Source of the DNA: Escherichia phage teqsoen
Length of the DNA: 64,000 nucleotides
Sequence record: MN895436.1
Strand: one strand, 5' to 3'
Position numbers and translations under genes: made by a program
Part shown: piece by piece, positions 1-56,389 of the stretch
How the letters are laid out: the number at the start of each line of letters is the position of its first letter
Numbering within the stretch: position 1 is the stretch's first letter
Notes under the pieces: model-generated
Told to the model about the DNA's origin: nothing
What the model saw: only the letters and a program-made list of their open reading frames with translations
Databases searched by the model: none

Positions 1-188
1 AATTCGACCTGCTTCTCACCATAATCATATCGAATCTCTGCGTTAAATTCAACAGACCCATCTGCGTGCATCATAAATGAATGCACAACAACTTCTGTAG
101 ACCAGGGTTGCAATTCATATTTCTTCATTACATGCCGTGAAATGATAATATCTAAATCTTCATTTGGTTTAATCCAGCGATTTAACAT
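1..188 (-). CDS. hypothetical protein, 5' portion only (continues beyond window start)
   Basis: ATG at 188 preceded by GAGGAG; open to window edge. Confidence 0.4.
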   Translation of the reverse strand, partial: MLNRWIKPNEDLDIIISRHVMKKYELQPWSTEVVVHSFMMHADGSVEFNAEIRYDYGEKQVE

Positions 189-254
189 AGTGCTCTCCTC
201 TATAAGATAATTCTATTATACCATACTCATTTTGGAAAGTAAACCATTTAAATG

Positions 255-278
255 AAAAAAGGACTCCCGAAGGAGTCC
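255..278 (-). terminator. hairpin terminator downstream of soc
   Basis: GGACTCC-CGAA-GGAGTCC stem-loop followed by T-run on minus strand. Confidence 0.7.
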
Positions 279-284
279 TTGAAT

Positions 285-3914: not shown

Positions 3915-4207
3915 TATTCACCTACCACTTCAGCGATGATATTTTTGTTATTAAAGTTTTTATCGCAATACAGAACATAATTATACTGCATTACACCACC
4001 AGACTTAAGCTGTTTTTGCACTTCAGCTTTCATTTCAGGGCGATCGCGCTCAACGATATTCATAATATCTGCTTCAATTTGAGTTTCAACCTCAGTCTGA
4101 TCCGCAGTCATAGACCATTCGCACAAATCTTTATCATAACCTGCCATAGCAGGCTGAGCAGCACAAGAAGCTAAAGCAAAAATTGTGGCAAAGATAAATT
4201 TTTTCAT
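3914..4207 (-). CDS. sp: Spackle periplasmic protein (superinfection exclusion, inhibitor of gp5 lysozyme)
   Basis: 97 aa with signal peptide MKKFIFATIFALASCAAQPAMA; T4 Sp-like. Confidence 0.85.
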   Translation of the reverse strand: MKKFIFATIFALASCAAQPAMAGYDKDLCEWSMTADQTEVETQIEADIMNIVERDRPEMKAEVQKQLKSGGVMQYNYVLYCDKNFNNKNIIAEVVGE

Positions 4208-4235
4208 GATAATCTCCTCAGTAGTTTATGTTTAT

Positions 4236-4265
4236 ATAGTATCTCAATTTCCAACAAAAGTAAAC
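4236..4265 (-). promoter_or_regulatory. early promoter upstream of sp
   Basis: GTTTAC, 18-nt spacer, TACTAT on minus strand; GAGGAG RBS downstream. Confidence 0.6.
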
Positions 4266-4267
4266 AG

Positions 4268-4525
4268 TTATTTTAAAACTTCTGCGTAATCACATGTTAC
4301 AAACTGTTTCTCTAGCTTGACGATTTTACGAAAGTATCTTTTGCATTGGCGAATCTGCCGCTTCGTGGGGCGAACAGCAAACTTAATAAATTCCACTCGA
4401 CCAAATGGAGGACTTTCTTCTGCTGGAATATCTAGCACCAATTCCCACGTATCTGCAATAAGTGCTTTGAATTGCGTATTTTTCCTGACGTTATACGGTG
4501 TAGGTTTAAATAAAACAATATGCAT
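4268..4525 (-). CDS. hypothetical protein (61.4 position, next to dmd)
   Basis: 85 aa from ATG 4525 (GAGGA upstream), 1 nt after dmd stop; track ORF extends to 4567. Confidence 0.6.
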   Translation of the reverse strand: MHIVLFKPTPYNVRKNTQFKALIADTWELVLDIPAEESPPFGRVEFIKFAVRPTKRQIRQCKRYFRKIVKLEKQFVTCDYAEVLK

Positions 4526-4526: not shown

Positions 4527-4709
4527 TTATCCTCGGCAATCCACTTCACATACTTTCTTGTCATCAATGAAAGCTTTAACTAATGCTTTATTAACTTCAG
4601 CATATTGAGTAGTAGCCCATTGAACGTCATCTTTCATCATTGTGGTTTCTTTAGTAAACATGCTTTCATTCTTAAACCACCCCATAAAAACTACCTTTAC
4701 CAATTCCAT
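4527..4709 (-). CDS. dmd: Dmd, antitoxin against host RnlA/LsoA
   Basis: 60 aa, matches T4 Dmd (MELVKVVFMGWFKNESMFTKE...). Confidence 0.88.
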   Translation of the reverse strand: MELVKVVFMGWFKNESMFTKETTMMKDDVQWATTQYAEVNKALVKAFIDDKKVCEVDCRG

Positions 4710-4737
4710 AACAATCTCCTATTTAACCAACAAGACT

Positions 4738-4767
4738 ACTATACCATAGTCTTGTCAGCTTGTAAAC
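4738..4767 (-). promoter_or_regulatory. early promoter upstream of dmd
   Basis: GTTTAC, 18 nt, TGgTATAGT on minus strand. Confidence 0.7.
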
Positions 4768-6194
4768 TAAAATTTTAATTCATTTGCCAAAGCATCTAAC
4801 TGAGCTCGAGTGGATTCATTTCTTTGATAGCGATTCTGCTCAGCCTGAATCTGTTGTGAACCTGCTACTTCACTCACTTCAGTTGGAGTAGAATCTTGTT
4901 CAATTTCTACCCATTTTTGATTTCCTTTTTGAACACCCATCAAAAACTTATTCCACTTATTCTTATCACCATATCGTGATTTGATTTGCTTAATGAGTTG
5001 CTGTTCAGCAGCTGCTAGCTCCTCGGTTTCAATGACCGCAAGCATAAAATCAGCGGTTGCTGGAAGACCAGCAGATTCTGCAATATCGCTCATGTTAACA
5101 TCGGAAGAGTCCCAAGCTTGTTTACCAACCTGTGCTGCAGTCCAAAGAACAGTTTCGGTTTCAACAGCCAGAGCACGCAATTCCTCTGCGATAGCTTTAA
5201 CAGTTGTGTAACTATTTTCTGAGTAAACTCTAATGCGGCAAGATTTACAAATACCTAGATAGTCGACAATAATGATTGTTGGAACAAAATTCTTCTTGAG
5301 CTTTAATTCATTTAAAAGTGATCGAAATGTATTAGCGTCTGCTCCACCAGTAGGATATTGCTTAACGATTAAACGACCAAGGGTAGATTTCTCACGCCAT
5401 TTTTCCATTTTTCCTTTATATTCAGCGTAAGAAATATGTCCATCATCAATGTCATCAAGAGAAACATCAAGCATGTTAGCGTCAATACGCTTAGCACAGA
5501 CTTCTTCTGCCATTTCCATGGAGATATAAAGAACGTTATGACCAAGCTGCAAATAATCTGCTGCTAATGAACAAAGTCCTAATGATTTACCAACGTTAAC
5601 GCCAGCCATTAAAACGTTCAGTGTTCCAGTTTCAGCTCCGCCTTTAGTAATTTTGTTTAGAATTCTGAGTTTAAATGGAACCTTACGAGCTTTATTCATA
5701 TAAGATAGCCAACGCGCTTCATAGTCATCCATCCAATCATGACCAACGTAGCTATCAAATGAAATTGATAATGCTTGGCGCATGATGTCAGGAATAGCAC
5801 CTACATCTGGCATTTTCTTATTTCGTTTTTCCGGAGGAAGCTCAGCATTAGTTTGAATTTCGATTATTTTAGATGTAGCATTAAACATCGCCCTTTGCTG
5901 AACATATTTTTCTGTTTCTTTTACTAACCAGCTGTGGTCTTCTGGAGAATCAGCCAGTTTTGAAATAAGTGTTTTTACACCAGAATATTCTGTTTCAGTA
6001 AATGAACTATTTTCTAATGCAACATTTAACGCATTAATAGATGGAACGCTATGATACTCATTAACATGAGATTTAATTAATTTGAATGTATTTTTAGCTG
6101 GACCACTTTCAAAATATTCTGAATCCATATATGGCCAAACTTTTGAAAAATAAGCTTGATCAAATATGAGATGAGAAAGAATAATTTCTACCAC
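4767..6194 (-). CDS. 41: replicative DNA helicase (gene 41)
   Basis: 475 aa; DnaB-family Walker A GVNVGKS; T4 gp41 length. Confidence 0.94.
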   Translation of the reverse strand: MVEIILSHLIFDQAYFSKVWPYMDSEYFESGPAKNTFKLIKSHVNEYHSVPSINALNVALENSSFTETEYSGVKTLISKLADSPEDHSWLVKETEKYVQQRAMFNATSKIIEIQTNAELPPEKRNKKMPDVGAIPDIMRQALSISFDSYVGHDWMDDYEARWLSYMNKARKVPFKLRILNKITKGGAETGTLNVLMAGVNVGKSLGLCSLAADYLQLGHNVLYISMEMAEEVCAKRIDANMLDVSLDDIDDGHISYAEYKGKMEKWREKSTLGRLIVKQYPTGGADANTFRSLLNELKLKKNFVPTIIIVDYLGICKSCRIRVYSENSYTTVKAIAEELRALAVETETVLWTAAQVGKQAWDSSDVNMSDIAESAGLPATADFMLAVIETEELAAAEQQLIKQIKSRYGDKNKWNKFLMGVQKGNQKWVEIEQDSTPTEVSEVAGSQQIQAEQNRYQRNESTRAQLDALANELKF

Positions 6195-10176: not shown

Positions 10177-10413
10177 TCAAATGCAAGTAGTAATTACTCC
10201 AGTAGTGCTTATGCAGGTATTACCCATTTGCACACCTAAAGATCCATTTGTATTCACATGAAGATTATCATCAATTTTAACTGATATTTTACCATTAGTG
10301 TGAATAACAGTGCTAGATTCAATCACAGGTTGAGTATCATTTTCAACACTAACAAATGGAACTGCTGCTAATGCAACTAAACAAACTGCTAAGCATCCCA
10401 TAACAATTTTCAT
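10177..10413 (-). CDS. small secreted protein
   Basis: 78 aa from ATG 10413 (GGAGA RBS) downstream of promoter; track ORF extends upstream through the promoter. Confidence 0.5.
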   Translation of the reverse strand: MKIVMGCLAVCLVALAAVPFVSVENDTQPVIESSTVIHTNGKISVKIDDNLHVNTNGSLGVQMGNTCISTTGVITTCI

Positions 10414-10450
10414 TTTATTCTCCAAATCCGTATCAGTAGTTGATAGTTGT

Positions 10451-10480
10451 ATAGTACCATAGAAGAACAGGGATGTAAAC
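10451..10480 (-). promoter_or_regulatory. early promoter cassette
   Basis: GTTTAC, 18 nt, TGgTACTAT; A/T-rich upstream element; near-identical copy at 52879-52908. Confidence 0.7.
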
Positions 10481-10564
10481 AGTTTTGTGAAAAAAATTTT
10501 TAGGGAATCCAAAGGGTCCAGAATCATCTCTTTTTCATAAGTATAGATTTATATTACTTGTATG

Positions 10565-10585
10565 AAAAAGGGACCTGGAGGTCCC
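10565..10585 (-). terminator. hairpin terminator downstream of gene 43
   Basis: GGGACC-TGGA-GGTCCC followed by T-run on minus strand. Confidence 0.65.
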
Positions 10586-10598
10586 TAGATTTATTCTA

Positions 10599-24115: not shown

Positions 24116-24331
24116 TTAAATTTTCCAGTTACCATTTTCATCAATAAATTTAATCCAGTCATTTACTGACCACTTAGTTGTATCACCTTTTGGAGTAACA
24201 TTTAAAGTATATAGCCCTTGCTTAAAAAGCATTCGTTTGATATTCATAATTTCCTCAGCTGTAACGATAACACTCGTTTGATTTACGTTTAGCAACTCGT
24301 TGAGAAGTATTATAATCAAAATCATCGTCAA
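24116..24331 (-). CDS. hypothetical protein
   Basis: 71-aa ORF with TTG start in track; overlaps next ORF, start uncertain. Confidence 0.4.
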   Translation of the reverse strand: MTMILIIILLNELLNVNQTSVIVTAEEIMNIKRMLFKQGLYTLNVTPKGDTTKWSVNDWIKFIDENGNWKI

Positions 24332-24587
24332 TGTAAACTGATTTTTTCAACTTTCTTACTTCACCACGTAATTGGCGATTTAGCTCATCTTTAACTTCTG
24401 AATCAATACCTTTCATTCTACGCCATTTATCTGAGCGAAAAATGTTTTCAACCATATCTTTATGACTTACACCATCAGGAGCTTTACGCTTTCCGAAATA
24501 GTCATAATCACGTACTTTTAAATCTTTACGACGATACGTTTTACCCATGGAGTTTAATTTCCTTAGCAACTGAACTAAATGCAGCAC
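24255..24587 (-). CDS. hypothetical basic protein
   Basis: 110-aa Lys/Arg-rich ORF, GTG start. Confidence 0.5.
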   Translation of the reverse strand: MLHLVQLLRKLNSMGKTYRRKDLKVRDYDYFGKRKAPDGVSHKDMVENIFRSDKWRRMKGIDSEVKDELNRQLRGEVRKLKKSVYIDDDFDYNTSQRVAKRKSNECYRYS

Positions 24588-24723
24588 GATCGCAAATCAT
24601 GCGTTTATGTAACTTGAGTATAATATAGCAAACTTCAAAACTATTTACATGAGTAACACGAACAGCATTATCATTAATGAGATAATACTGTCCCTTTTTA
24701 ATTTCTTTATCAACCATAACCAT
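24541..24723 (-). CDS. hypothetical protein
   Basis: 60-aa ORF downstream of promoter at 24754-24783. Confidence 0.45.
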   Translation of the reverse strand: MVMVDKEIKKGQYYLINDNAVRVTHVNSFEVCYIILKLHKRMICDRAAFSSVAKEIKLHG

Positions 24724-24753
24724 ATCAATTCCTCAAAGGTAATTCATATGTTA

Positions 24754-24783
24754 ATAATACCACGGTTTGAACTTGTTGTAAAC
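24754..24783 (-). promoter_or_regulatory. early promoter
   Basis: GTTTAC, 18 nt, TGgTATTAT on minus strand. Confidence 0.7.
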
Positions 24784-24864
24784 AACTTTGTGAAAAATAT
24801 TTTAGGGAATGACAAGAAGGGAACGATAGCTTAGAATGGTAATATACAGAATGCGAGAAAGAAA

Positions 24865-24877
24865 GGCCCAGAGGGCC
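24865..24877 (-). terminator. hairpin terminator downstream of nrdH
   Basis: GGCCC-AGA-GGGCC followed by T-rich run on minus strand. Confidence 0.6.
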
Positions 24878-24881
24878 CGTC

Positions 24882-28324: not shown

Positions 28325-28789
28325 TTAAAATGCTCGGTCAGAAAAAGAAATTTGAGTTTCAAGCCATTCAATATATTCTGCCGCAGCTTGCATCAAATTT
28401 CCTTCGTAATCATCAATATCTTTTTTCAACGCCGATTTAGCTAATGCGTATGAAATACGTTCACCTTGAAAACCGGCTTTAGGCTTCTGAACAACTTGAT
28501 TAGTTCGCTCTACAACTTCTTCAATTTCGCCATTTTCTACTGATTCAGTATTCCACAAGCACCAATACGTAATTGGCTTATCGTAGATGTTAATAATCTT
28601 TCCATCAGAAAGTTCAATTTCAATAATTCCAGTATCAGGCTCTATATCATCTTCACATTCTTTTGCAAGTTCACGAACTTTAAAGACAGTACCTGCACTA
28701 AGTTCCGGCCAGTAATTACACAGCCCTGTATCAGCACGATTAATTCTAAACCACTTATCTACTGTAATCATGTCCCATCTCCATATCAA
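28325..28789 (-). CDS. hypothetical protein (pin position)
   Basis: 154-aa ORF; position only. Confidence 0.5.
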   Translation of the reverse strand: MIWRWDMITVDKWFRINRADTGLCNYWPELSAGTVFKVRELAKECEDDIEPDTGIIEIELSDGKIINIYDKPITYWCLWNTESVENGEIEEVVERTNQVVQKPKAGFQGERISYALAKSALKKDIDDYEGNLMQAAAEYIEWLETQISFSDRAF

Positions 28790-28894
28790 TTAAGTCATTT
28801 ATCGTTGGTTCATTATACACCGTTTCTTCATCAGTGTAAACCGGTTCTTCCGGCTCTGGCTCTACAGTTTCCCATCTAGCCGCCCACCAAGGTT

Positions 28895-31400: not shown

Positions 31401-32402
31401 TTACTTAATTAACTGTAAAGCTTGTTCAAGACGATCAAGACGATTAACGGATTCTTCCCAAATCTTTTTAGCCTGCTCATATTCTTTCTGCGCTTTATTA
31501 GAAATTTCTAGAACTTCTTTATAAGCTTTTTCTAGTGCAATAACTTCTGGACGAATTTCTACCGGTTCAGGTGAATCATCAAGATTATCCATTAGTTCCT
31601 CAAGGGTAGTTTCTTCTTTAGAAGTATTCACAATTTCCTCACATTTTTGTTGATAAATTTCTTTATCAGTAGGTGAATAAGCACATTTCACTTCACGAAG
31701 ACTAATTACATTTTTATATCCTTCCCATCCGCATATATTCTTAAAAGGATATGTATGAATATTTTCTACTGTTTCCATACAAAGTAATGCAGTCTCTAAC
31801 TGACGAGTTATAGTGCTAGCAATTGAGAAAAATTTATTAATATTCTTTTGGTTAGCGTTTGGTGTAAAAAATCCATAATTCACAAAAATAGCTACTTTAT
31901 TTTCATCAAGCTCATATTCTTTTACGATAATCATATCAGAAGCCAAAGGATGAATTTGACGATAATCGCCATAACATAATTTAGAAGCTGATTTTAGAAT
32001 TTGTCCTTTGAAAAGTCTGAAATTACTAATCCAACGACGAGTAAAAATATTCTCAGGGTCTTCTTTATTATTAAGATGATAAGAATTAACATCACCGAAC
32101 CAATTATATCCTACTACATCTTTGGTTCGTTTAATTTCTTTCCCAAAATTACCAAGAATATCCCGATTAACCAAATATGAAAGAAGACGAGACTCTTTAA
32201 AAGTTTTCTTGATAACATCTTTATCTACACGGCTAGAAATTTTACGAATTTCATGAATAAATTTAGTAGAAGAAACAATACTTGCATCAACACTATTGAG
32301 CCATTGATTGATAATAGAAAGAACGATATTTTGACCAAACATCGGTATAGCTTTATCATCAATAACGCTATTGAATGATTTGATATATTCGTTACGAGTC
32401 AT
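31401..32402 (-). CDS. hypothetical protein with C-terminal coiled coil
   Basis: 333 aa from ATG 32402 (GAGGAG RBS) downstream of promoter; track start 32453 lies upstream of the -10. Confidence 0.6.
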   Translation of the reverse strand: MTRNEYIKSFNSVIDDKAIPMFGQNIVLSIINQWLNSVDASIVSSTKFIHEIRKISSRVDKDVIKKTFKESRLLSYLVNRDILGNFGKEIKRTKDVVGYNWFGDVNSYHLNNKEDPENIFTRRWISNFRLFKGQILKSASKLCYGDYRQIHPLASDMIIVKEYELDENKVAIFVNYGFFTPNANQKNINKFFSIASTITRQLETALLCMETVENIHTYPFKNICGWEGYKNVISLREVKCAYSPTDKEIYQQKCEEIVNTSKEETTLEELMDNLDDSPEPVEIRPEVIALEKAYKEVLEISNKAQKEYEQAKKIWEESVNRLDRLEQALQLIK

Positions 32403-32430
32403 AATAATCTCCTCAGTAGAAAGTAAGAAC

Positions 32431-32460
32431 ATTATACCACATCCTTGTGGCAAAGTAAAC
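32431..32460 (-). promoter_or_regulatory. early promoter
   Basis: GTTTAC, 18 nt, TGgTATAAT on minus strand. Confidence 0.7.
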
Positions 32461-33479
32461 TAGTTCAGTGCATTTAGTGCATTGTTCAGTTTAGAACGTT
32501 GTTTTGTCAGATTTTGAATCCTCGATTGAGCTTGTTCTAACGCCTTTTCAGCTTCTAGCACTTCATTGGTCGCTTTAACGAGTTCATCATCTACTGCCTT
32601 GATAGACTTCTCAATCGCATCCGCGTGCCATTTTTCAACAGGTTTAAGACTCGGATTTTCAACAGGAAGAAAATTCACTTTATTGAATTTCCATGCATCA
32701 TTATTACCTGAACTATACATCCAAAATTTAGGATCGTTTGATAAGTAATTGGATAAATTTAAGTTATCTTGCACTTCCTGCTTTTTCTCTTGCGGGACTT
32801 CGTCCTTTCTCAAAAAATCGTATTTAAATGAAACGATCATATCAAGTTCATATGATGTTGTATCTAACTTAAATCGTTCAAAACGAGGTAAAATCTTAGA
32901 TTGAACAGCAGCAACAACATCCATATACTTAAATGCTTCTGTCAGCTGTGATTTAAGACATTCACAAATTGAAAGAGAATTTTTTGTATTAGGTTTAAAG
33001 CTAATTCGTGCAGTTCTATTATTTTCTTTTAATGGTCTTACTTCCATCTGAAGAGTATAACCATCAAATTTCAGATTCTTTAAGTTAATATCAGAGCCTT
33101 TTAATCGACTAGCAGTAGACAAAATTTGCTTTAATTGTTTACGAAATAGAGCAATAAATCTCCATTCAATACGATAATGATTTGGATTAAAAAATCCTGT
33201 TGATAAATCGACCTTACTCTGACCAACACCTTGAACAAATAGAGGATTTTTATAATCAATAGTTTTACAGAAATCGGTGAGCTGCTCACGAGCAGTCATT
33301 TGTGTAATATATCCCGCTTTACTAAAATGACGTAACCATTCACTGCTATTCATATACTTAAAGTGAATGGAACTATTAACTCTATCAGGGTCTAAATTAT
33401 TTTGGCACAAAAATGTCATAACATTACGGGTATAGCTGGCATTACGAACCATATCTTCAATTTGAGAACGAGTTTTCAT
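32460..33479 (-). CDS. hypothetical protein with C-terminal coiled coil
   Basis: 339 aa. Confidence 0.6.
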   Translation of the reverse strand: MKTRSQIEDMVRNASYTRNVMTFLCQNNLDPDRVNSSIHFKYMNSSEWLRHFSKAGYITQMTAREQLTDFCKTIDYKNPLFVQGVGQSKVDLSTGFFNPNHYRIEWRFIALFRKQLKQILSTASRLKGSDINLKNLKFDGYTLQMEVRPLKENNRTARISFKPNTKNSLSICECLKSQLTEAFKYMDVVAAVQSKILPRFERFKLDTTSYELDMIVSFKYDFLRKDEVPQEKKQEVQDNLNLSNYLSNDPKFWMYSSGNNDAWKFNKVNFLPVENPSLKPVEKWHADAIEKSIKAVDDELVKATNEVLEAEKALEQAQSRIQNLTKQRSKLNNALNALN

Positions 33480-34845: not shown

Positions 34846-35373
34846 TTATGCGAGTACCGTCTTTAACCGTTCTTCAAACTTCCGAAGAGTATTCTGGCGT
34901 TCAGCTCTTTGCTTTTTATAAGTTTCAATACGCTCTGAAATGAGAGTGTATCGTTCATTTACTGATTCTTTCATAAAATCAGGAATTTCACGAGAAGCTT
35001 TAATCTCATCAAATTTATCAATAACAGCTTGCTCTTCGGCAATTAAGTTATCATACATCAAAATATCTTTCTTGATGAACTCAATATCTTCTTGAGTTAC
35101 ACGAGATAATTTAGATGCTTTATCCTTTTTGTACTGTTCATTAGTATCACGAGACCAGTGTAATGTACGATTTTTATTCGTATTCTTGTAAATTTCTACA
35201 ATACCAATCTCATCAATAATAACGATCCAATTCCAACGGGATTTGTAAATCTGCCCTCCATCAACCGTGATTTCACCTTCGATTGAGATGTCATTAAAGA
35301 ACTTGCTTTGTGCTTCAGATTTAAATTTACCATCGTTATAATTTACCAGGTTGAAAATATCTTTAGCGTTCAT
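34846..35373 (-). CDS. hypothetical protein with C-terminal coiled coil
   Basis: 175 aa; GGAGGAACAG RBS. Confidence 0.6.
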   Translation of the reverse strand: MNAKDIFNLVNYNDGKFKSEAQSKFFNDISIEGEITVDGGQIYKSRWNWIVIIDEIGIVEIYKNTNKNRTLHWSRDTNEQYKKDKASKLSRVTQEDIEFIKKDILMYDNLIAEEQAVIDKFDEIKASREIPDFMKESVNERYTLISERIETYKKQRAERQNTLRKFEERLKTVLA

Positions 35374-35401
35374 TTTCTGTTCCTCCGTAGTTGATAGTTG
35401 T

Positions 35402-35431
35402 ATAGTACCACAGAGGAACAGTCTTGTAAAC
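35402..35431 (-). promoter_or_regulatory. early promoter cassette
   Basis: GTTTAC, 18 nt, TGgTACTAT. Confidence 0.7.
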
Positions 35432-35433
35432 CA

Positions 35434-35748
35434 CTAAAAGAAACTTCTTTCACAATTTTTTCCACTGAACCAAGCGCTCACTGCTTTCTTAGTCTCAGGA
35501 GCAGTGTTATCCATAAACCATTCAAAGGCAGCCTTTTTATGATTCTGGAGGGCTTCTCGGGCTTTAATCTGCTCACGGTCTATTAACACTAACATATGAG
35601 CCTTTCTTGTCACCAAGGGCTTCTTATGATTCTTGGAGTATTCCCAGTCATTTGTCCAACGCATTGTCGTTGCGAACTGATGAACCGCGTCTTTAATTTT
35701 AGTTTCATAAATTTCACGAGCCTTTGAGTATAACATCATTACCTCCAT
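35434..35748 (-). CDS. hypothetical protein
   Basis: 104-aa ORF. Confidence 0.5.
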   Translation of the reverse strand: MEVMMLYSKAREIYETKIKDAVHQFATTMRWTNDWEYSKNHKKPLVTRKAHMLVLIDREQIKAREALQNHKKAAFEWFMDNTAPETKKAVSAWFSGKNCERSFF

Positions 35749-35837: not shown

Positions 35838-36818
35838 TTATTTCAGAAGAGTAACCTCAGCGATTTCTTCCCAACCGTTTTTGTCGGTCATAATAAAGTC
35901 AGCAAGATAAAGCGCAGTACGCAGTGAAACATTGCGTAAACGATTAACATTAACTTTCATCCATGATAATGCTTTATAAGTTTCTTCATCAGAAAGACCG
36001 CGCTTTTGCATCATGTCAGTTGAAAGAATAACATCTTCAACCCTGACCATAATTTCTTCATTAGTGTGAACACCCAAATCTAAATAAACTGAGCGGGACA
36101 CTAATGCTTGTAAATGTGGAGCAAGTTTAGTACCACGGTCTAATTCGCGGTCAATGTCAACGTTTGTGATAAAAACAATCGTTCCTTTAAATTCAAACTC
36201 ACGCTCAATGCCTTTTTCTTCTAAGTAAGAAGATGCAGTGCTCCAGCAGACTTTACGGGTCTCTCCAGTGTCCAGAGCAGCTTTCAGAAGATTAAGAATG
36301 TCCATATCAGAGAAAACATCCACATCATCAATCAAAAGTACAGAATTCTCTTCACGATTATTCCAAAGCTGTTCATAAAGACCGATACCGGAGATTTTAC
36401 CGTTAATGCTTTTATATTCAATGTATCCAATATCATTTGCTTTATTTAAAGCTTTATCTAAAGAATACGTTTTACCAATACCTGCTGCTCCCGAGATAAT
36501 TAATGAACGAATGTTTCCGTTAATAATACCATTCGTCATCATTCCCATAACATTAAATCTTTTATTAATGCGGGTTTTCATATCTTCATATGATTCTTTA
36601 ACTTCTTCAACTTTTACACCATCATATGAAATGTCTGATTTGTAAACCCAAACACCGCGACGCTTACCGTCAATTTCAACAAAAACTTTACCATCTCCTT
36701 GTGCATCTACCGGAGCATTATCTGGGAACCATTCGCCTAAGAGCTCAAAAGTTCCAGAGATTTCTTTACCGAAGTAGATACCCTTATTGATAGTTACAGT
36801 TTTCATTTTATTCTCCAA
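35838..36818 (-). CDS. P-loop NTPase
   Basis: 326 aa; Walker A GAAGIGKT, Walker B LLIDDVD. Confidence 0.65.
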   Translation of the reverse strand: MENKMKTVTINKGIYFGKEISGTFELLGEWFPDNAPVDAQGDGKVFVEIDGKRRGVWVYKSDISYDGVKVEEVKESYEDMKTRINKRFNVMGMMTNGIINGNIRSLIISGAAGIGKTYSLDKALNKANDIGYIEYKSINGKISGIGLYEQLWNNREENSVLLIDDVDVFSDMDILNLLKAALDTGETRKVCWSTASSYLEEKGIEREFEFKGTIVFITNVDIDRELDRGTKLAPHLQALVSRSVYLDLGVHTNEEIMVRVEDVILSTDMMQKRGLSDEETYKALSWMKVNVNRLRNVSLRTALYLADFIMTDKNGWEEIAEVTLLK

Positions 36819-36840
36819 ATCCGTATCAGTTGATAGTTGT

Positions 36841-36870
36841 ATAGTACCATAAAGCTTTATGCTTGTAAAC
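36841..36870 (-). promoter_or_regulatory. early promoter cassette
   Basis: GTTTAC, 18 nt, TGgTACTAT; leader shares about 45 bp with the 10414-10460 copy. Confidence 0.7.
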
Positions 36871-36892
36871 CATTTTGTGAAAAATTTTTGAA

Positions 36893-36918
36893 ATAAAAAA
36901 GGGAGCCCGAAGGCTCCC
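36893..36918 (-). terminator. hairpin terminator
   Basis: GGGAGCC-CGAA-GGCTCCC followed by T-run on minus strand. Confidence 0.7.
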
Positions 36919-36920
36919 TA

Positions 36921-39736: not shown

Positions 39737-39911
39737 TTAAAGTTTCAATATAAGAATCAAGATTTACTTTAGCTTCTTCCATAAGAGTTTTGTATTTAAT
39801 CTTGTTAGCATGTCCGGAGAAAGCTGATTCATCAATAACTGTTGATGTATGAACAGCTCTACTATACGTCTCAATTAATTCTCTTAATTTAAAAGCCTGC
39901 TCACTTGTCAT
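39726..39911 (-). CDS. hypothetical protein
   Basis: 61-aa ORF. Confidence 0.5.
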   Translation of the reverse strand: MTSEQAFKLRELIETYSRAVHTSTVIDESAFSGHANKIKYKTLMEEAKVNLDSYIETLIGE

Positions 39912-40043
39912 TACATACTCCTTTGAATCATATCAATAATATTGTTCACCAGATTATAGGTAAACATTGGGTAATTATATTGAATCATCACATATATAAC
40001 AAACAAAACTTTCATTCTCTTCTCCTTGACAGTTGACAAGATT

Positions 40044-40073
40044 ACTATACCATAACCTTGCCAACTTGTAAAC
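40044..40073 (-). promoter_or_regulatory. early promoter
   Basis: GTTTAC, 18 nt, TGgTATAGT. Confidence 0.7.
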
Positions 40074-40238
40074 CGTTAAATGTTGTTTTCAATAAAATTC
40101 TGAAGCTTTGTGTGAGCATCAACCATGATTTTCATTTCTTCCTTTGCGAAAGCTGTACCTCTTTCCCGAGCAGAATACTCATAGTCAGAAACTGCATTAG
40201 CATATTCTTCAATTAGCTTCATTAAAAACATCTGCTTT

Positions 40239-40639: not shown

Positions 40640-40827
40640 TATTCCACCACATATGAAAGAGAGAATATTGCACACGCCATGTGAGTTGCAACTTCATCAC
40701 ACATATTATAACGTTTCTTAAGAAGTTCTACAAGTTCTTCACTAGTAACTTCATCCATGTCGACGAAAAAATCACCATTAATGATGACGTAGATATTTCC
40801 TTCTTGATTGAGTGCTTCAATTTTCAT
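40639..40827 (-). CDS. hypothetical protein
   Basis: 62 aa from ATG 40827 with AGAGGAGAA RBS downstream of promoter. Confidence 0.5.
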
Positions 40828-40855
40828 GATGTTCTCCTCTTTATCCGATAGTTGT

Positions 40856-40885
40856 ATAGTACCACAGCTCAAACGGAAAGTAAAC
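40856..40885 (-). promoter_or_regulatory. early promoter cassette
   Basis: GTTTAC, 18 nt, TGgTACTAT. Confidence 0.7.
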
Positions 40886-40893
40886 CGGTAAAA

Positions 40894-40919
40894 TGAAAAA
40901 AGTCTCCCGAAGGAGACTA
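40894..40919 (-). terminator. hairpin terminator
   Basis: GTCTCC-CGAA-GGAGAC followed by T-run on minus strand. Confidence 0.65.
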
Positions 40920-44559: not shown

Positions 44560-45021
44560 TCATTGAGTTTTAATTACTGCTTTAGAAGCCTTTCCTGGTA
44601 AACGACGACTGTTGATAATTGCCATCCTGCATTGAAGTGACGGGTCTTTGAACTTCTCATTAGGCTTACAAACCGTAAATCCAAGCCAAAGATTTCCATC
44701 TGTGATTTCTAAACGTCCAGGACGATATTCAACCCCATCAATAAAATCCTCGTCAATGTCAGGACGCGGAGGCATACTCAGGAATTCATTAACTTCTAAA
44801 ACATGGTCTTTTATTTTATGGAATAATTCAAAAACATATGTCTCATCAATCTCCCGTTGAATTGCACGATCAAGAAGATGTTGAGAATATTTTAGATGAA
44901 ACGATGAGACTCCTGCTGCTTTTGATGCCTCACGAATCTCATTGTTAATTTGACGAAACTCCGACTCAAAGTGACGACGAAGCTTATTTCGACGGATAAA
45001 AACTTCTGTATTGATAGTCAT
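44560..45021 (-). CDS. regB: RegB endoribonuclease
   Basis: 153 aa; T4 RegB length and position; own early promoter. Confidence 0.85.
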   Translation of the reverse strand: MTINTEVFIRRNKLRRHFESEFRQINNEIREASKAAGVSSFHLKYSQHLLDRAIQREIDETYVFELFHKIKDHVLEVNEFLSMPPRPDIDEDFIDGVEYRPGRLEITDGNLWLGFTVCKPNEKFKDPSLQCRMAIINSRRLPGKASKAVIKTQ

Positions 45022-45048
45022 GTTGTTCTCCTCTTAACTGATAGAAAA

Positions 45049-45078
45049 ATTATACCACAGTCAAGAGGAAAAGTAAAC
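45049..45078 (-). promoter_or_regulatory. early promoter upstream of regB
   Basis: GTTTAC, 18 nt, TGgTATAAT; AGAGGAG RBS follows. Confidence 0.75.
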
Positions 45079-45080
45079 AG

Positions 45081-45401
45081 TTATTCTTTAAATCTAATCA
45101 ATTTATTCATAGACTTTGAAACTTCTGCACGAACCTCATGTAAGTTTTTAAGCTGTTCAAGACGCTGCTCATAGTAAGCAATTTCATCTTCTTCGAGACA
45201 GTCCTGTGAATCTTCTTTAAGATAGCGTGCATAGTCCTGGAAAGCTTTACGGACTACTTCCTGGAAGTCATCAAGACTTTGAATTTTCTTAGGAGCGGCA
45301 GATACACGACGAGGGGCAGTATAATACTCATAACCAAACCCTGCACTTAATTGAGCCATTAGTATTTTTCCTCTGGTTGGAACACAGCACGGCAAGCCCA
45401 C
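45081..45401 (-). CDS. hypothetical protein
   Basis: 106-aa ORF. Confidence 0.5.
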
Positions 45402-48026: not shown

Positions 48027-48443
48027 TTAAATGTAAATATTTTTACCGTAATACTTATACCAATGTGGTTTCATTAAAATTTTTTCATCAAGTCGTTGTT
48101 GACTCAATTTAATAGCTGATTTGCATGGATTATAATCATTTTTCCATTCTACTGGAATATCGCTGATGTCAGGAACTTCAGTATCTTTTATACTGAACCC
48201 TCGTTTTAAGCATTCCGTTATAATGTCTAATTGACGCTTTCGCAAAAATTCTAACTTATCGTAAAAGAACGTAACATGACCAGAACCTAAAATAAACTCG
48301 GAAGATATTTTAAAATCTTTAACGCGCTTACCGTTTGCCACATGCTTACGAACTATACCAAAAACACGTGGCAATTCACGGTATTCTGCGATTAAATGTT
48401 GATCAGCAAGTTCAGATACTAAAGTCAAATTAATACGAGTCAT
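48027..48443 (-). CDS. denV: endonuclease V, pyrimidine-dimer DNA glycosylase
   Basis: 138 aa; matches T4 DenV as I recall it ([27 protein letters not shown]). Confidence 0.9.
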
Positions 48444-48468
48444 TTTATCCCTCCAAGTAACTGTGAAT

Positions 48469-48498
48469 ATACTATCACAATTCTAGGAGAAAGTAAAC
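48469..48498 (-). promoter_or_regulatory. early promoter upstream of denV
   Basis: GTTTAC, 18 nt, TAGTAT on minus strand. Confidence 0.65.
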
Positions 48499-48502
48499 AA
48501 CT

Positions 48503-49471
<969 letters not shown>

Positions 49472-51308: not shown

Positions 51309-51902
51309 TTATTTCAGAGAATTAATGTATTCCTGAACATCGGCAGAGGTAGTTTCAACCCCAGAAATATTGCCATTAAAGGTTTCAACTCGAGCAAGAG
51401 TATCTTCAATATCAACCTTAGTCAGTGCTGCAATTTCAACTACATCATCAGCAGTACTAATTCCAAGGGCATTTGCTGCACGAGTTTCACGGATATATTC
51501 CAATTTAACTGCAAGTTCTTGGCGAGCATCATCCAATTCAACTACTTTCTTGGCGATTTCAATTCGCATTTCAGCATAACCATCAGCTTTAGTAGTCAAC
51601 TGTTCAGCTGTTCGACGATATAGCAAGCCGAGTTTAGCATGCATTGTTACATCTTGACCTTCCGAAAGAAGCTTGCGAATTTCACGCTCTTTTGATTTGG
51701 CCTGCTTATTCTTTTCGACAATAAGTTCACGAATACGCTTTTCTTCATTAATAGATTTAACAGAAGCAGTTTTTAGATCTTTAATTTTATCAAGCAATTT
51801 TGCTGCTGCGGCAGTATACTGCTCTTCAACAGATAGATTTTTAGCCATAGCAGAACCAAGTTTAGTGCGAATAAACTCAACAATTTTCTTCAGTGTGTTC
51901 AT
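51309..51902 (-). CDS. coiled-coil protein
   Basis: 197 aa, largely helical with heptad-like pattern. Confidence 0.5.
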
Positions 51903-51958
51903 AGTATTTCCTTAGGTTGGTATAATTAGATAATATCACGTTTTAATAGATTGTAAAC

Positions 51959-52294
51959 TTATTCTTCGTCTAGCTCGTCGATAAAGACGTTGATGGCCTC
52001 GATAACGGCATCATTGATAGCTAATAAAATAAAATCATCGTCAGTACCTTTAGAAGATTCTAAAGCATTGATATATGCTTGGTTGGCGAGTTCCCAAGCC
52101 TTTTTAAAATAAGGAGCTTCATCATCAGGACAAATATCCCGCACGCCTTCAAAGATACGTTTGGCATAATCTAACACCCATTGTACAGGCATGTTTTGAG
52201 AACGTTCGTTAAACTCTTTAAAGTCCTTAGATTCAAAAAGCTCTTCAGGATAATTATTTCTATTACAAAAAGCTTTACTAAAGTTACGTTTCAT
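51959..52294 (-). CDS. hypothetical protein
   Basis: 111-aa acidic ORF. Confidence 0.5.
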   Translation of the reverse strand: MKRNFSKAFCNRNNYPEELFESKDFKEFNERSQNMPVQWVLDYAKRIFEGVRDICPDDEAPYFKKAWELANQAYINALESSKGTDDDFILLAINDAVIEAINVFIDELDEE

Positions 52295-52338
52295 AATGTT
52301 TTCCTTGTGATGATAAGTCTATAGTAACGCCTTCATAC

Positions 52339-52503
52339 TTAGATGTAAACTATTTCAACATCGCCTTTTGCTGTTTTATAACCTTCAGCCCAAGATACAA
52401 CCGAGTTTTTATCTGAAGATTCAAATTCTGGCATTGGGCTTTCGCCAATGTTCACGCAGTATGTTTCTTCATTTTCGTCGAACCAAATAATTAAAGTAGT
52501 CAT
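52339..52503 (-). CDS. small acidic protein (54 aa)
   Basis: MTTLIIWFDENEETYCV...; GGAGAAATAA RBS; below track cutoff. Confidence 0.35.
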   Translation of the reverse strand: MTTLIIWFDENEETYCVNIGESPMPEFESSDKNSVVSWAEGYKTAKGDVEIVYI

Positions 52504-52571
52504 TTATTTCTCCGTTTCTGTATTTGTTTTGATAAGTCTATAATAACACCATCCTTGGTGTTTGTACACAA

Positions 52572-52847
52572 TTATTTCATATTATTGAAATATTCTTCTG
52601 CGATTTCGTCGTTATCATGGTAAACTTTAGAAGACAGTTTAACATAACCTTCAGCAGTGAACATGTTAATCACAACCTTTACAGTATACCACTGACCATC
52701 TTCATTACCCATTACTGCGTAAGTTTCAAACATCGGATGGTCAGGACCGATAACTTTAATATCATTCACTGTACGACCGAAATCTTCTGAAACACATTTC
52801 ATAAAGAAGTTGAACAGTTCGCCGTAATTATCCATTTTATTCTCCAA
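52572..52847 (-). CDS. hypothetical protein
   Basis: 91-aa ORF directly downstream of promoter cassette. Confidence 0.5.
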   Translation of the reverse strand: MENKMDNYGELFNFFMKCVSEDFGRTVNDIKVIGPDHPMFETYAVMGNEDGQWYTVKVVINMFTAEGYVKLSSKVYHDNDEIAEEYFNNMK

Positions 52848-52878
52848 GTTGTTTTCTGTATCAGTAGTTGATATTGAT

Positions 52879-52908
52879 ATAGTACCATGGAAGAACAGGG
52901 ATGTAAAC
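52879..52908 (-). promoter_or_regulatory. early promoter cassette
   Basis: GTTTAC, 18 nt, TGgTACTAT; about 65 bp near-identical to 10435-10500. Confidence 0.7.
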
Positions 52909-53041
52909 AGTTTTGTGAAAAAATTTTTTAAAAAGTTTTGGGGAATTCTGGGGCAGGGAGGGGCAATTAAAGGATAGGATAATATATTATAACGGGTAGA
53001 AACTAAATGATGTCTGGAGAGGCCCAGAAAGGCCTAGATGC

Positions 53042-55585: not shown

Positions 55586-55733
55586 TTAAACCAATTAAAA
55601 ATGCTACTACAAGTGAAAACACATTTTCTGCTGTAGTTAATAATCCGCATATAAATCCAACAAACATTGAAAAACTAAAAGCGGAAGCAGAAATTGCAAT
55701 AGCAACATTTCGAATTAATTCACAACGTTTCAT
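55548..55733 (-). CDS. small membrane protein
   Basis: 61 aa, two hydrophobic helices; AGGAGAA RBS downstream of promoter. Confidence 0.45.
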   Translation of the reverse strand: MKRCELIRNVAIAISASAFSFSMFVGFICGLLTTAENVFSLVVAFLIGLIAVVMDKISKGE

Positions 55734-55761
55734 TTTATTCTCCTCAGTAGTTGATAGGGTA

Positions 55762-55791
55762 ATAGTATCACCACCCTATCTAAAAGTAAAC
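55762..55791 (-). promoter_or_regulatory. early promoter with -10 inside an inverted repeat
   Basis: GTTTAC, 18 nt, TACTAT; flanked by GATAGGGT/ACCCTATC. Confidence 0.6.
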
Positions 55792-56025
55792 TTATTTTTT
55801 ACGAAAAATTGATTTATTTTCTGCTGCCCATTTTTCAATAACTGCAGCAGGACCAGTAACAACAATTTTATCACCGTAATCTTCTGCGGCGAGTTGACCG
55901 AAATTATCTAATGCATCACGAAGAACTCCATGAGGCATTTCACCCATTTTATCTTTCTTGCCGGTGTAAATAAACTCAACTTTTACATCAGAAGATTCAG
56001 CGATAAACTCTTTGAAAGTTTTCAT
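55792..56025 (-). CDS. protein with capsid-targeting-like N-terminus
   Basis: 77 aa from internal ATG: MKTFKEFIAES...; track ORF starts further upstream. Confidence 0.6.
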   Translation of the reverse strand: MKTFKEFIAESSDVKVEFIYTGKKDKMGEMPHGVLRDALDNFGQLAAEDYGDKIVVTGPAAVIEKWAAENKSIFRKK

Positions 56026-56059
56026 TTTGATTTCCATTTGGTTTTGTTTTGATAGAGTA

Positions 56060-56089
56060 ATAGTATCACTACTAAAACCCTGTGTAAAC
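56060..56089 (-). promoter_or_regulatory. early promoter
   Basis: GTTTAC, 18 nt, TACTAT. Confidence 0.65.
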
Positions 56090-56101
56090 AACTTTGTGAA
56101 A

Positions 56102-56359: not shown

Positions 56360-56389
56360 TTTATTTTCCTAATTAATTTTGATGAGATA

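Follow-up and report, generated by a model that had tools for sequence, protein, structure and literature searches.

Positions 10414–10500 of the 64-kb window (the whole stretch of DNA analysed, 64,000 nt) lie between gene 43 and imm.1 and share long blocks of sequence with loci tens of kilobases away. What this segment does, and why it recurs, are the questions raised by the locus. Judged from its sequence, the window represents a Tequatrovirus early-gene region; it is collinear with T4 16.3–82 kb at 92–98% identity, and R5505, the closest relative, is 98.6% identical to it. Comparisons were made across a panel of eight genomes (T4, RB59, R5505, ES26, ESh34, LF73P1, PYps15T and HY03). The 10414–10500 segment itself is very probably a sigma-70 early promoter with its leader. 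The repeated cassettes to which it belongs are T4-type early promoters, a class already in the literature, and the finding is real but ordinary.

The focal cassette and its promoter family

Read along the minus strand, the focal cassette is preceded by a terminator-like hairpin just past the gene 43 stop codon (AGGGACCTCCAGGTCCCT and a T run, 10564..10586), 88 nt upstream of the -35, and the annotation of R5505 places a terminator at the same position. An A/T-rich UP-like tract (AAAAATTTTTTTCACAAAACT, 10481..10504), which contains TTTTCACAAA, leads into a -35 of the T4 early type (GTTTAC, 10475..10480) and an extended -10 (TGG followed by TACTAT, 10451..10459), giving a promoter of the form GTTTAC / 18 nt / TACTAT. 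The initial transcribed region and 5' leader (ACAACTATCAACTACTGATACGGATTTGGAGAATAAA, 10414..10450) include a predicted start site near 10444, within a conserved cTATCA; the corresponding predicted starts of the cassettes at 36870 and 52908 are ~36834 and ~52872. The leader ends in a Shine-Dalgarno (SD) sequence, GGAGAATAAAA (10413..10423), that overlaps the A of the ATG and perfectly matches the optimal RegB/S1 site. The cassette drives a 78-aa ORF of PHROG 4189 with a hydrophobic N-terminus (10177..10413, minus strand). This ORF is missing from T4, RB59 and ESh34, where the same leader leads straight into imm.1, and the T4 sequence upstream of imm.1 is orthologous to the focal cassette.

The promoter has many counterparts. 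The pattern GTTTAC-N17-19-TANNNT occurs 25 times in the 64-kb window against 2.6 +/- 1.5 expected, a roughly tenfold enrichment that none of 100 shuffles reaches, and 23 of the 25 matches are on the minus strand. After inspection 23 cassettes were kept, all on the minus strand: 21 exact matches, a GTGTAC variant at 52569 and a GTTTAA variant at 57909. The first-pass annotation had counted at least 14 minus-strand promoters with an 18-nt spacer and a frequent TGn, and had called them early promoters; all of this holds. The spacer in the GTTTAC register is 18 nt in 22 cassettes (17 nt in the TTGACA register), 18 of the 23, the focal one included, have TGn, and an SD followed by an ATG, the latter 19–61 nt after the -10, is found in every one. 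A further suggestion, that an element of the TTTTCACAAA type is general to the cassettes, fails, as only six of 23 carry it (10480, 24783, 36870 and 52908, and with one mismatch 56089 and 56419).

These elements agree with the published T4 early consensus, in which GTTTAC occupies -36 to -31, the UP region is rich in A and a stretch rich in G and T lies 5' of -12 (PMC1524935), and with the description of T4 early promoters as 'uber UP/-35/TGn/-10' promoters (PMC2988021). The assignment to this class rests on the tenfold enrichment, the confinement to one strand, the TGn, the constant SD/ATG spacing and the match to the T4 consensus. Chance resemblance in an AT-rich genome would fit one result, namely that generic TTGACA/TATAAT scans for sigma-70 sites find about as many matches as in shuffled sequence (91 vs 83, 107 vs 88 and 78 vs 76), without enrichment. 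The T4-specific pattern, its 23 to 2 distribution between strands, a 19-nt UP/-35 pattern with six matches against none expected, and repeats of 76–105 nt at 88–92% identity already refute it, and its probability is practically nil. In AT-rich DNA a generic scan is thus insufficient, and the T4-specific pattern is needed to find these promoters.

Orthologous cassettes occupy 16 sites in T4 16–84 kb, and the -35, spacer and -10 of the regB cassette, whose promoter a review describes as 'a typical early promoter', are identical to those of its T4 counterpart. Across 553 Tequatrovirus-type records, the cassette family is present in 7–9 copies per genome. Like T4 early promoters, the cassettes combine a GTTTAC -35, TGn, -10 and A/T-rich UP tract with early-strand orientation and orthologous positions; the focal promoter differs from its T4 equivalent in driving the extra 78-aa ORF before imm.1 and in carrying an e.8-type instead of a T4-type spacer, and nothing essential differs. 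No promoter features are annotated in the GenBank and RefSeq records of T4, no usable map of T4 early start sites turned up in the literature searched, and the main text of a T4 omics paper makes no mention of imm.1, nrdC.10 or e.8. By analogy with established T4 biology, unmodified host RNA polymerase would read all four promoter elements together and fire right after infection, and an upstream hairpin would terminate the preceding transcription unit. The outcome is some 20 early transcription units mapped in an unannotated T4-like genome, which mostly confirms textbook T4 biology.

The general order of parts is the stop codon of the preceding gene, a terminator hairpin in some cassettes, an A/T-rich UP-like tract, the GTTTAC -35, a spacer with TGn at its end, a TA(C/T)(T/A)AT -10, a cTATCA start site, a leader of 25–43 nt, a GGAG-type SD and the ATG. 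All members of the family lie on the minus strand. Those at the left end of the window are a cassette with an adjoining upstream terminator hairpin (186..280; hairpin 259-280), one before sp (spackle; 4205..4289) and one before dmd in which a 15-bp hairpin spans the -10 (4707..4791). The 55.6 cassette (24721..24878) includes the TTTTCACAAA tract, with a GC hairpin (24864-24878) upstream. Further cassettes precede nrdC.4 (32400..32484), nrdC.8 (35371..35455), nrdC.10 (36804..36919, with a focal-type leader and SD and the upstream terminator hairpin 36900-36919) and the 61-aa ORF at 39726-39911 (39909..39989). The mobD.2a cassette (40013..40097) is a paralogue of the cassette at 4767 and likewise has a 15-bp hairpin across its -10, and the mobD.5 cassette (40825..40918) adjoins the terminator hairpin 40901-40918. 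Next come the regB early promoter cassette (45019..45102) and those of denV (48441..48522), e.6 (51900..51982, with a 17-nt spacer), e.7 (52292..52374), the 54-aa ORF at 52339-52503 (the GTGTAC cassette, 52501..52593) and e.8 (52833..52932), the last being the closest paralogue of the focal cassette and carrying the SD GGAGAATAAAA. The trna.4 cassette (55731..55815) has the same SD and a hairpin spanning its -10; one internal-protein gene is preceded by a cassette with a ATTTCACAAA tract (56023..56113) and a second by a cassette with a 13-bp hairpin across the -10 (56357..56443). Three promoter-like sites are doubtful as early promoters and may not be real: 24338 (24245..24362), a weaker candidate within coding sequence with a 61-nt leader; 28841 (28769..28865), a site kept in all relatives that lies within 49.1 and upstream of pin; and 57909 (57852..57933), the GTTTAA site before gene 1, also a weaker candidate.

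Several cassettes had been proposed to sit directly downstream of GC hairpins. The hairpins named are real, at 36900-36919 and 40901-40918, but only five of the 23 cassettes have one nearby upstream. Terminator-like GC hairpins with a T run are found at 259-280, 10569-10586, 24864-24878, 36900-36919 and 40901-40918, within 30 nt of the -35 in three cassettes and 80–90 nt away in two. A stem-loop of the kind described in the promoter-early stem-loop (PeSL) shuffling model of T4-type phages (Arbiol 2010, PMC2839356) accompanies 14 of 23 cassettes, in five as one of these upstream terminators and in nine as an internal or -10-spanning hairpin with z < -2, and a convincing stem-loop is missing in the other nine. 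The sole stem-loop of the focal cassette is the gene 43 terminator, and no stem-loop was found within 100 nt of the cassette at 52908.

The shared leader and a predicted RegB/S1 site

The SD of the focal cassette belongs to a small and exact set. The motif GGAGRAYARAA has four perfect matches in the 64 kb against 0.28 expected, and all four are cassette SDs: GGAGAATAAAA at 10413-10423, 36806-36816, 52835-52845 and 55733-55743, belonging to the cassettes at 10480, 36870, 52908 and 55791. The optimal RegB/S1 site in T4 is GGAGAAUAAAA (Durand 2006, PMC1702504), and by letter identity the SD of these four cassettes is exactly that cleavage site. The focal SD and the three others therefore resemble in sequence the T4 RegB/S1 targets of Durand 2006; a difference is that six of the 23 cassettes, counted by eye, have a GGAA-type SD without GGAG. 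By analogy with established T4 biology, an exposed SD would also be a target of the phage RegB/S1 endonuclease. Since one sequence would serve as both ribosome-binding site and RegB target, we propose that the message is translated briefly and then inactivated. That the leader carries an optimal RegB site would also account for its strong conservation.

The leaders of the focal ORF, nrdC.10 and e.8 are nevertheless longer than an SD demands. Some 37–43 nt are conserved between three unrelated genes, the three leaders measure 34–43 nt against the usual 25–28 nt, and the middle of the leader, CAACTACTGATACGGATTT, is conserved besides the SD/RegB site and the start-site motif. This would suit a cis-regulatory RNA, either structured or an operator for a protein other than RegB/S1, that co-regulates the 10177-10413 ORF, nrdC.10 and e.8. 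The three leaders, however, fold no better than shuffled sequence (z = 0.4, 1.0 and -1.1 for 10480, 36870 and 52908; not significant) and are predicted to be unstructured, the matches of an Rfam search of the window are nine tRNAs and nothing else, and the leaders of relatives carry indels of 3 nt and longer, or replacements, with the downstream gene retained. The structured form was rejected for all three leaders on the lack of a significant fold, and a cis-regulatory RNA as a whole appears improbable.

Probable sequence exchange between cassettes, and the genes around them

The focal cassette matches its closest paralogue, before e.8, at 92% without gaps (10427-10502 vs 52855-52930), and local alignments extend the resemblance to 92 of 105 positions with that locus (10405-10502 vs 52826-52930) and 93 of 114 with the nrdC.10 locus (10403-10516 vs 36796-36902). 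About 100 bp at 82–88% identity is common to the cassettes at 10480, 36870 and 52908. Long identities of this kind had been reported in the first-pass annotation, and over 76 ungapped nt they are real, but the partners were placed out of register: read literally, 10435-10500 vs 52861-52926 agree at 24 of 66 positions and 10414-10460 vs 36817-36863 at 13 of 47. The true registers are displaced by 2 nt for the 52861 pair and by ~10–13 nt, with a 3-nt indel, for the 36817 pair.

Could the cassettes have reached a common optimum of promoter, start site and RBS-RegB site independently, with no recombination between them? Such convergence would fit the observations that the most conserved blocks are the functional ones (UP tract, GTTTAC, TGn, -10, cTATCA and GGAGAATAAAA) and that other genera also have the cTATCAACTAC start region ahead of denV and nrdC.8. 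Under convergence, both the spacer ATCCCTGTTCTTC and the stretch CAACTACTGATACGG of the leader would be expected to matter for activity, yet spacers are otherwise free to vary. Over the first 15 spacer nt, the mean number of identical positions is 4.7 +/- 1.95 (231 cassette pairs), whereas the cassettes at 10480 and 52908, 42 kb apart, agree at 14 of 15. Because an otherwise unconstrained spacer agrees so closely, the long identities are ascribed neither to chance nor to convergence. Two further patterns count against convergence. First, at the orthologous gene 43/imm.1 locus, nine genomes display three leader variants and three spacer types that are combinations of the e.8 and nrdC.8 types, found at two other loci; the spacer type of the nrdC.8 cassette is present at the focal locus of PYps15T and ESh34. 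Second, deleted ORFs are marked by chimeric cassettes. Convergence without exchange is thus an unlikely account.

From the mosaic spacers at one orthologous locus in nine genomes we infer gene conversion between paralogous cassettes. The identities among the cassettes at 10480, 36870, 52908 and 35431 exceed what function requires and would reflect common descent with continuing non-reciprocal exchange, presumably through the phage homologous recombination system. Sequence would in this way pass between cassettes across tens of kilobases, and for pairs of cassettes separated by a few hundred bp this homology would also serve to delete or insert the small ORF between them.

Gene content changes of the latter type are seen among the relatives. 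The cassette before trna.4 in T4 and ESh34 is a chimera, its 5' part from 56089 and its 3' part from 55791, and one internal-protein gene is lost. Four distinct indels are found in the e.7/52339 region; all of them begin and end within cassettes, and both the e.7 and the GTGTAC cassette are endpoints of several indels. The leader of the nrdC.10 cassette (36816-36830, at the nrdC.10/nrdC.11 junction) is an insertion hot spot, with one extra ORF in R5505 and two extra ORFs plus a second cassette in HY03 and PYps15T. Indels in the denV cassette relative to T4 and HY03 break at 48454, and HY03 has lost the nrdC.4 coding sequence, one of the breakpoints lying just past the start codon that follows the cassette. 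Six single-ORF modules each lie between a pair of cassettes spaced at most 400 bp from each other, and four of the six are among the most variable ORFs. The 61-aa ORF at 39726-39911 is the most variable of the panel, missing from six of seven relatives; in a PHROG search it was labelled 'helicase loader', and the other variable cargo ORFs fell in function-unknown families.

The proposal that cassettes flank the least conserved ORFs is weakly true. Seven of 15 cassette-first genes are variable compared with 16 of 74 other genes (one-sided Fisher p = 0.049), but cassette-first genes make up only seven of the 23 variable genes. The remaining eight cassette-first genes (regB, nrdC.8, nrdC.10, e.6, e.8, pin, 55.6 and mobD.5) are present in every relative. 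The opposite pattern, with cassette-flanked ORFs the most conserved genes, was looked for across the relatives and is not what they exhibit.

Cassette-mediated shuffling is therefore partly supported, and it is already published. Under the PeSL model (Arbiol 2010), and in the T4/PST pair for which Comeau 2014 (PMC4122927) gives the consensus TTTACW-N17-TAYWAT, the units resemble the present cassettes: an early promoter with an AT-rich tract, an SD and an ATG, plus a stem-loop that precedes the promoter, lies within it or overlaps it, with chimeric cassettes at indels between close relatives here too. They differ in that a convincing stem-loop is lacking in nine of the 23 present cassettes and in that, in this panel, the association with indels is no stronger than at other gene junctions. 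Of 61 breakpoints, 10 fall in cassettes where a uniform null predicts 3.0 (p = 7e-4), but when cassettes are compared with other gene junctions the proportions with breakpoints are 10/17 and 32/81 (p = 0.12), which is not a significant enrichment. Many indels are homing-endonuclease or intron differences or occur at short start-codon homology; start-codon microhomology, terminator repeats and homing endonucleases are behind most of the gene-content differences. For the PeSL model this is a caution: exchange is real at tightly spaced cassettes, yet cassettes are not measurably better breakpoints than other junctions.

The same data bear on whether the cassettes are dedicated site-specific recombination sites, comparable to integron attC, from which a specialised protein moves ORFs as small circles. 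Using inverse PCR, Arbiol 2010 (PMC2839356) found mini-circles of PeSLs in RB49 and phi1 and raised, as speculation, a stem-loop-binding protein, and the insertions of an ORF plus cassette at nrdC.10/nrdC.11 fit a cassette model. Against this, the breakpoints are scattered, with some at the start codon, some in the leader and some in the -10/+1 region; other indels rely on terminator repeats, coding-sequence repeats or 8 nt of homology at start codons; breakpoints are not significantly more frequent at cassette junctions than at others; and no recombinase is associated with the cassettes. General recombination in T4 copes with homologies of <50 bp (cited in PMC2839356). A dedicated system is accordingly very unlikely, and exchange by general homologous recombination is preferred. 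Like lambdoid morons and integron gene cassettes, the units are small accessory genes with their own promoter and terminator inserted between conserved genes; unlike them, they have no integrase or attachment site, and exchange appears to rely on ordinary homology shared by regulatory sequences.

Pairing between promoter spacers and Shine-Dalgarno regions

In three cassettes, those of regB (45078), denV (48498) and nrdC.8 (35431), the spacer between -35 and -10 is complementary to the SD region of the same cassette, and the pairing exhibits covariation, with compensatory changes, across several T4-like genera. The regB arms occur in three sequence types (TTCCTCTTGACTG / CAGTTAAGAGGAG; TTCTCCTCTAGTTG / CAACTAGAGGAGAA; TCTCCTGTAAG / CTTACAGGAGA). 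At denV the pairing is kept in at least four sequence types, and a second architecture exists in which the 5' arm lies just past the -10. MAFFT misaligned two of the denV sequence types by one or two columns, and an alignment-free comparison of cognate with non-cognate duplex energies was therefore added. A separate test over all 23 cassettes, setting cognate against non-cognate promoter context, gave p = 0.08; anti-SD pairing as a rule for every cassette was rejected on that result and kept for the subset with strong hairpins.

It is possible, although we lean against it, that some early-promoter cassettes also act as translational gates and that this role is both functional and unpublished. 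The spacer would be transcribed only in read-through from upstream, and the read-through RNA would form a hairpin of 15–18 bp that buries the ribosome-binding and RegB site. RNA from the cassette's own promoter would be without the 5' arm and would stay open. With the 5' arm upstream of the cassette's own start and the 3' arm over the SD, only transcripts from the proximal promoter should be translatable, and expression of gated genes would be confined to the short burst of their own early promoter. If true, this would be a simple rule for limiting certain genes of T4-type phages to a brief pulse of expression from their own promoter, and it would account for the only moderate RegB cutting of the nrdC.8 GGAG.

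Spacer-SD gating at early promoters was not found described in the reviews consulted, and regB, denV and nrdC.8 are not among the genes given for RBS-sequestering hairpins in one such review. The nearest parallels are the hairpins of T4 e, soc, 49 and I-TevI, in which the 5' arm likewise lies upstream of the start and the 3' arm covers the SD. In those genes the embedded promoter is late; in the present cassettes an early sigma-70 promoter takes its place, with the -35/-10 spacer itself as the anti-SD arm. The known e and 49 hairpins were also picked up by the hairpin scan.

T4-type early promoter cassettes in teqsoen

The recurrent feature of this region is a family of early promoter/leader cassettes of the T4 kind. 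The pattern GTTTAC-N17–19-TANNNT matches the 64-kb window 25 times (2.6 ± 1.5 expected; 0 of 100 shuffles reach 25), with 23 of the 25 matches on the minus strand. A generic TTGACA/TATAAT scan of the window shows no enrichment, and the signal is therefore specific to the T4-type −35. After flank inspection, 23 cassettes were retained, all on the minus strand and each named here by the window position of its −35. The spacer counted from GTTTAC is 18 nt in 22/23 and TGn is present in 18/23, as the first-pass annotation had described for at least 14 minus-strand promoters; its upstream element, TTTTCACAAA, does occur, but in six cassettes rather than in all. A Shine-Dalgarno sequence and ATG follow in all 23, at 25–28 nt from −10 to ATG in most cassettes and 34–43 nt in the three focal-type cassettes, 10480, 36870 (preceding nrdC.10) and 52908 (preceding e.8). 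Five nucleotides past the −10, a cTATCA motif conserved in about half of the cassettes probably holds the transcription start site, whose position we infer.

This anatomy matches that published for T4 early promoters, in which GTTTAC occupies −36 to −31, the UP-like region is rich in A, a GT-rich stretch precedes −12 and the −10 is of the sigma-70 type (PMC1524935). Termed ‘uber UP/-35/TGn/-10’ in the Hinton review, these promoters win over those of the host and gain further strength when Alt ADP-ribosylates the alpha subunit (PMC2988021). In its −35, spacer and −10, the regB cassette (45078) does not differ from that of T4, and published work classes the regB promoter as a typical early one (PMC3014915). 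The focal cassette family is present in 7–9 copies in each of 553 Tequatrovirus-type records. Earlier publications cover both the identity of the cassettes and the shuffling hypothesis.

Several hundred Tequatrovirus genomes match at 95–99% identity (megablast of 9000–12000 and 20000–44000), the closest being vB_EcoM_R5505 at 98.6%. A blastn map places the T4 counterpart at 16.3–82 kb, spanning gene 56 through gene 6, with 92–98% identity and ~20 indels. The focal cassette, 10480 (10414–10500), lies directly downstream of gene 43 (DNA polymerase; 10599–13295, minus) and is orthologous to the T4 gene 43/imm.1 intergenic sequence. The T4 genes segA, mobB, mobC, mobD, segB and segC and the nrdD intron with I-TevII are absent from teqsoen; the sites of these gene-content differences and of the replacement described next are 7704–8651, 21469–21494, 25971–25991, 27267–27270, 37935–38898, 53989–54257 and 62692–62697. 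An unrelated 280-aa ORF (7794–8636), annotated in HY03 as beta-glucosyl-HMC-alpha-glucosyltransferase, stands in place of the T4 beta-glucosyltransferase. Rfam identifies nine tRNA genes at 53947–54775 on the minus strand (T4 has eight), and several mechanically listed ORFs there are therefore spurious.

Probable sequence exchange between cassettes

The focal cassette is nearly identical to two distant ones. Positions 10427–10502 and 52855–52930 are 92% identical without gaps, and local alignments give 92/105 matches for 10405–10502 against 52826–52930 and 93/114 for 10403–10516 against 36796–36902. The long identities noted at first pass thus exist, but their partner coordinates were out of register and, read literally, give 24/66 and 13/47. 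Functional constraint does not account for the near-identity: at the first 15 spacer positions, cassettes average 4.7 ± 1.95 identities over 231 pairs and 10480 and 52908 share 14.

Comparison with a panel of homologous 40–68 kb regions from T4, RB59, R5505, ES26, ESh34, LF73P1, PYps15T and HY03, from which all cassettes were extracted and their flanks mapped back onto the window, reveals three spacer forms at the gene 43/imm.1 locus. T4, RB59, R5505 and LF73P1 carry AAGACTGTTCTTCCATGG; PYps15T and ESh34 carry AAGACTGTTCCTCTGTGG, the nrdC.8-cassette type; and the window, ES26 and HY03 carry ATCCCTGTTCTTCTATGG, the e.8-cassette type. Indels distinguish three variants of the leader at this locus, and in HY03 the cassette is identical to the e.8 cassette from −35 through −10. 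These mosaic spacers and leaders point to gene conversion between cassettes 25–42 kb apart; only non-reciprocal exchange would be survivable, because crossing-over between these cassettes would delete essential genes.

Gene shuffling at promoter-early stem-loop (PeSL) cassettes has been proposed for RB49/phi1 (PMC2839356) and for the T4/PST pair (PMC4122927), and several loci provide examples here. First, the trna.4 cassette of T4 and ESh34 is a hybrid of window cassettes 56089 (upstream half) and 55791 (downstream half), and the internal-protein gene between the two is missing from both phages. Second, the e.6–e.8 interval exhibits four different indels with both ends within cassettes 51958, 52350 or 52569. 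Third, the 36870 leader (36816–36830) holds one extra 66-aa ORF in R5505; in HY03 and PYps15T it holds two additional ORFs and, after them, a second cassette, of the type seen at the internal-protein locus. Fourth, a 78-aa ORF driven by the focal cassette and lying between it and imm.1 (10177–10413, minus) is present in 5/8 relatives and absent from T4, RB59 and ESh34, where the focal leader is joined straight to imm.1; an 8-nt ATGAAAAT repeat, found at both start codons, delimits the insertion. The N-terminus of this ORF (PHROG 4189) is hydrophobic and resembles a signal peptide. The nrdC.11/nrdC.10 junction (36816–36830) is a hot spot that is empty in T4 and the window; one of its two ORFs in HY03 and PYps15T encodes a DUF4031 protein. 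The corresponding intervals in the relatives are L005 29424–29799, L010 19086–19495 and L011 29337–29746.

Statistical support for shuffling is weaker than these examples imply. Cassettes make up 4.9% of the region and contain 10/61 breakpoint clusters (p = 7e-4). At the level of junctions there is no significant excess of breakpoints (10/17 with a cassette vs 32/81 without; one-sided Fisher p = 0.12); this test takes in a few spurious tRNA-cluster ORFs, and dropping them would shift the result only slightly toward significance. The first-pass claim that cassettes flank the least conserved ORFs holds only weakly: cassette-first genes are variable in 7/15 cases vs 16/74 other genes (p = 0.049), but they account for only 7/23 variable genes, and eight of them are kept in all relatives. 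Overall, the first-pass observation of the cassettes is partly confirmed and its interpretation partly supported.

Other routes also alter gene content. Many differences are homing endonucleases plus one intron, present in T4 and absent from teqsoen, and some are bounded by non-promoter repeats (repeat families D10 and D15). Direct repeats of 49 bp (2926–2974 and 3284–3332; 96% identical), each comprising the end of one ORF and the Shine-Dalgarno sequence and ATG of the next rather than a promoter cassette, flank a 118-aa ORF (2930–3286) that is not collinear with T4 here and has only a 35%-identity tblastn match elsewhere in T4. Repeats of 36 bp forming a strong terminator hairpin (53038–53073 and 53597–53632; 94% identical) flank a 157-aa ORF (53078–53551) absent from T4, RB59 and HY03. 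The internal-protein-type genes (47210–48042, 55792–56359 and 2893–2953) have in common 61-nt repeats that span the leader and the sequence encoding an N-terminal MKT(Y/F)(Q/K)EF, and ESh34 has lost one such gene via crossover between these repeats. Two internal-protein-type genes lie downstream of denV, and the interval from e to denV, which holds ipII and ipIII in T4, contains neither. The most variable ORF of the panel (61 aa; 39726–39911, minus) matches PHROG 4859, labeled ‘helicase loader’ (E = 1e-38).

Predicted RegB sites and hairpins in cassette leaders

The leaders of 10480, 36870, 52908 and 55791 end in a common GGAGAATAAAA, then TG. These four carry the only perfect matches in 64 kb to GGAGRAYARAA, the strong RegB/S1 consensus (0.28 expected); Durand et al. 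(PMC1702504) concluded that efficient RegB cleavage requires the sequence GGAGAAUAAAA itself. Read by eye, GGAG lies within the Shine-Dalgarno sequence of 17/23 cassettes. Folding of the three focal-type leaders yields no significant structure (z = 0.4, 1.0 and −1.1), and an Rfam search over them finds no match. Given these consensus matches and the absence of fold or Rfam match, the best reading is that the leader would be open, strongly translated and inactivated by RegB within minutes.

A second arrangement is present in three other cassettes. RNA folded from −35 to ATG forms long hairpins at nrdC.8 (35371–35431, minus; −23.2 kcal/mol, z = −6.2 to −6.3 in two runs), regB (45019–45078, minus; −22.4 kcal/mol, z = −5.3 to −5.5) and denV (48441–48498, minus; −18.8 kcal/mol, z = −4.0 to −4.4), in which the −35/−10 spacer pairs with the gene’s own Shine-Dalgarno region. 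Applied to the starts of 100 other genes, the same scan also picks up the known e and 49 hairpins. The T4 denV cassette differs in sequence and has the same hairpin architecture. In IMG/VR regions upstream of regB, denV and nrdC.8 (L012–L104; 55–99% protein identity), including other genera of T4-like phages, pairing is retained via compensatory changes. Cognate promoter/Shine-Dalgarno duplexes are more stable than non-cognate ones for denV (−13.8 vs −8.3 kcal/mol), regB (−19.0 vs −12.1) and nrdC.8 (−18.5 vs −9.6). In 13 aligned denV cassettes, 88% of cells are paired vs 67% in shuffles (0/500 reach 88%), and the covariation score is 0.65 vs 0.31 in shuffles (0/500) and 0.02–0.36 for slid partners. 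Pairing is not significant as a general property over all 23 cassettes (p = 0.08) and does not apply to the focal-type cassettes.

In all three, the 5’ arm precedes the predicted start site, and the nrdC.8, regB and denV hairpins should therefore form only in read-through transcripts. The same logic operates at e, soc, 49 and I-TevI, but with late promoters; a review names only these four plus homing-endonuclease genes in this context. Durand et al. (PMC1702504) report moderate RegB cleavage at the nrdC.8 GGAG, and no more than that.

GC hairpins followed by T runs occur at 36900–36919, 40901–40918, 259–280, 10569–10586 and 24864–24878, the first two corresponding to those reported at first pass near 36893–36918 and 40894–40919. 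Stem-loops accompany 14/23 cassettes, as five upstream terminators and nine hairpins within or across the −10 (z < −2); the search found none in the other nine, and for the focal cassette the gene 43 terminator, some distance away, is the only one. These placements fit the PeSL subclasses. Hairpins of 12–15 bp span the −10 on the minus strand at dmd (4731–4762), mobD.2a (40037–40068), trna.4 (55755–55786) and an internal-protein gene (56383–56414); their arm sequences differ, complementarity is retained, and the Shine-Dalgarno sequence lies outside.
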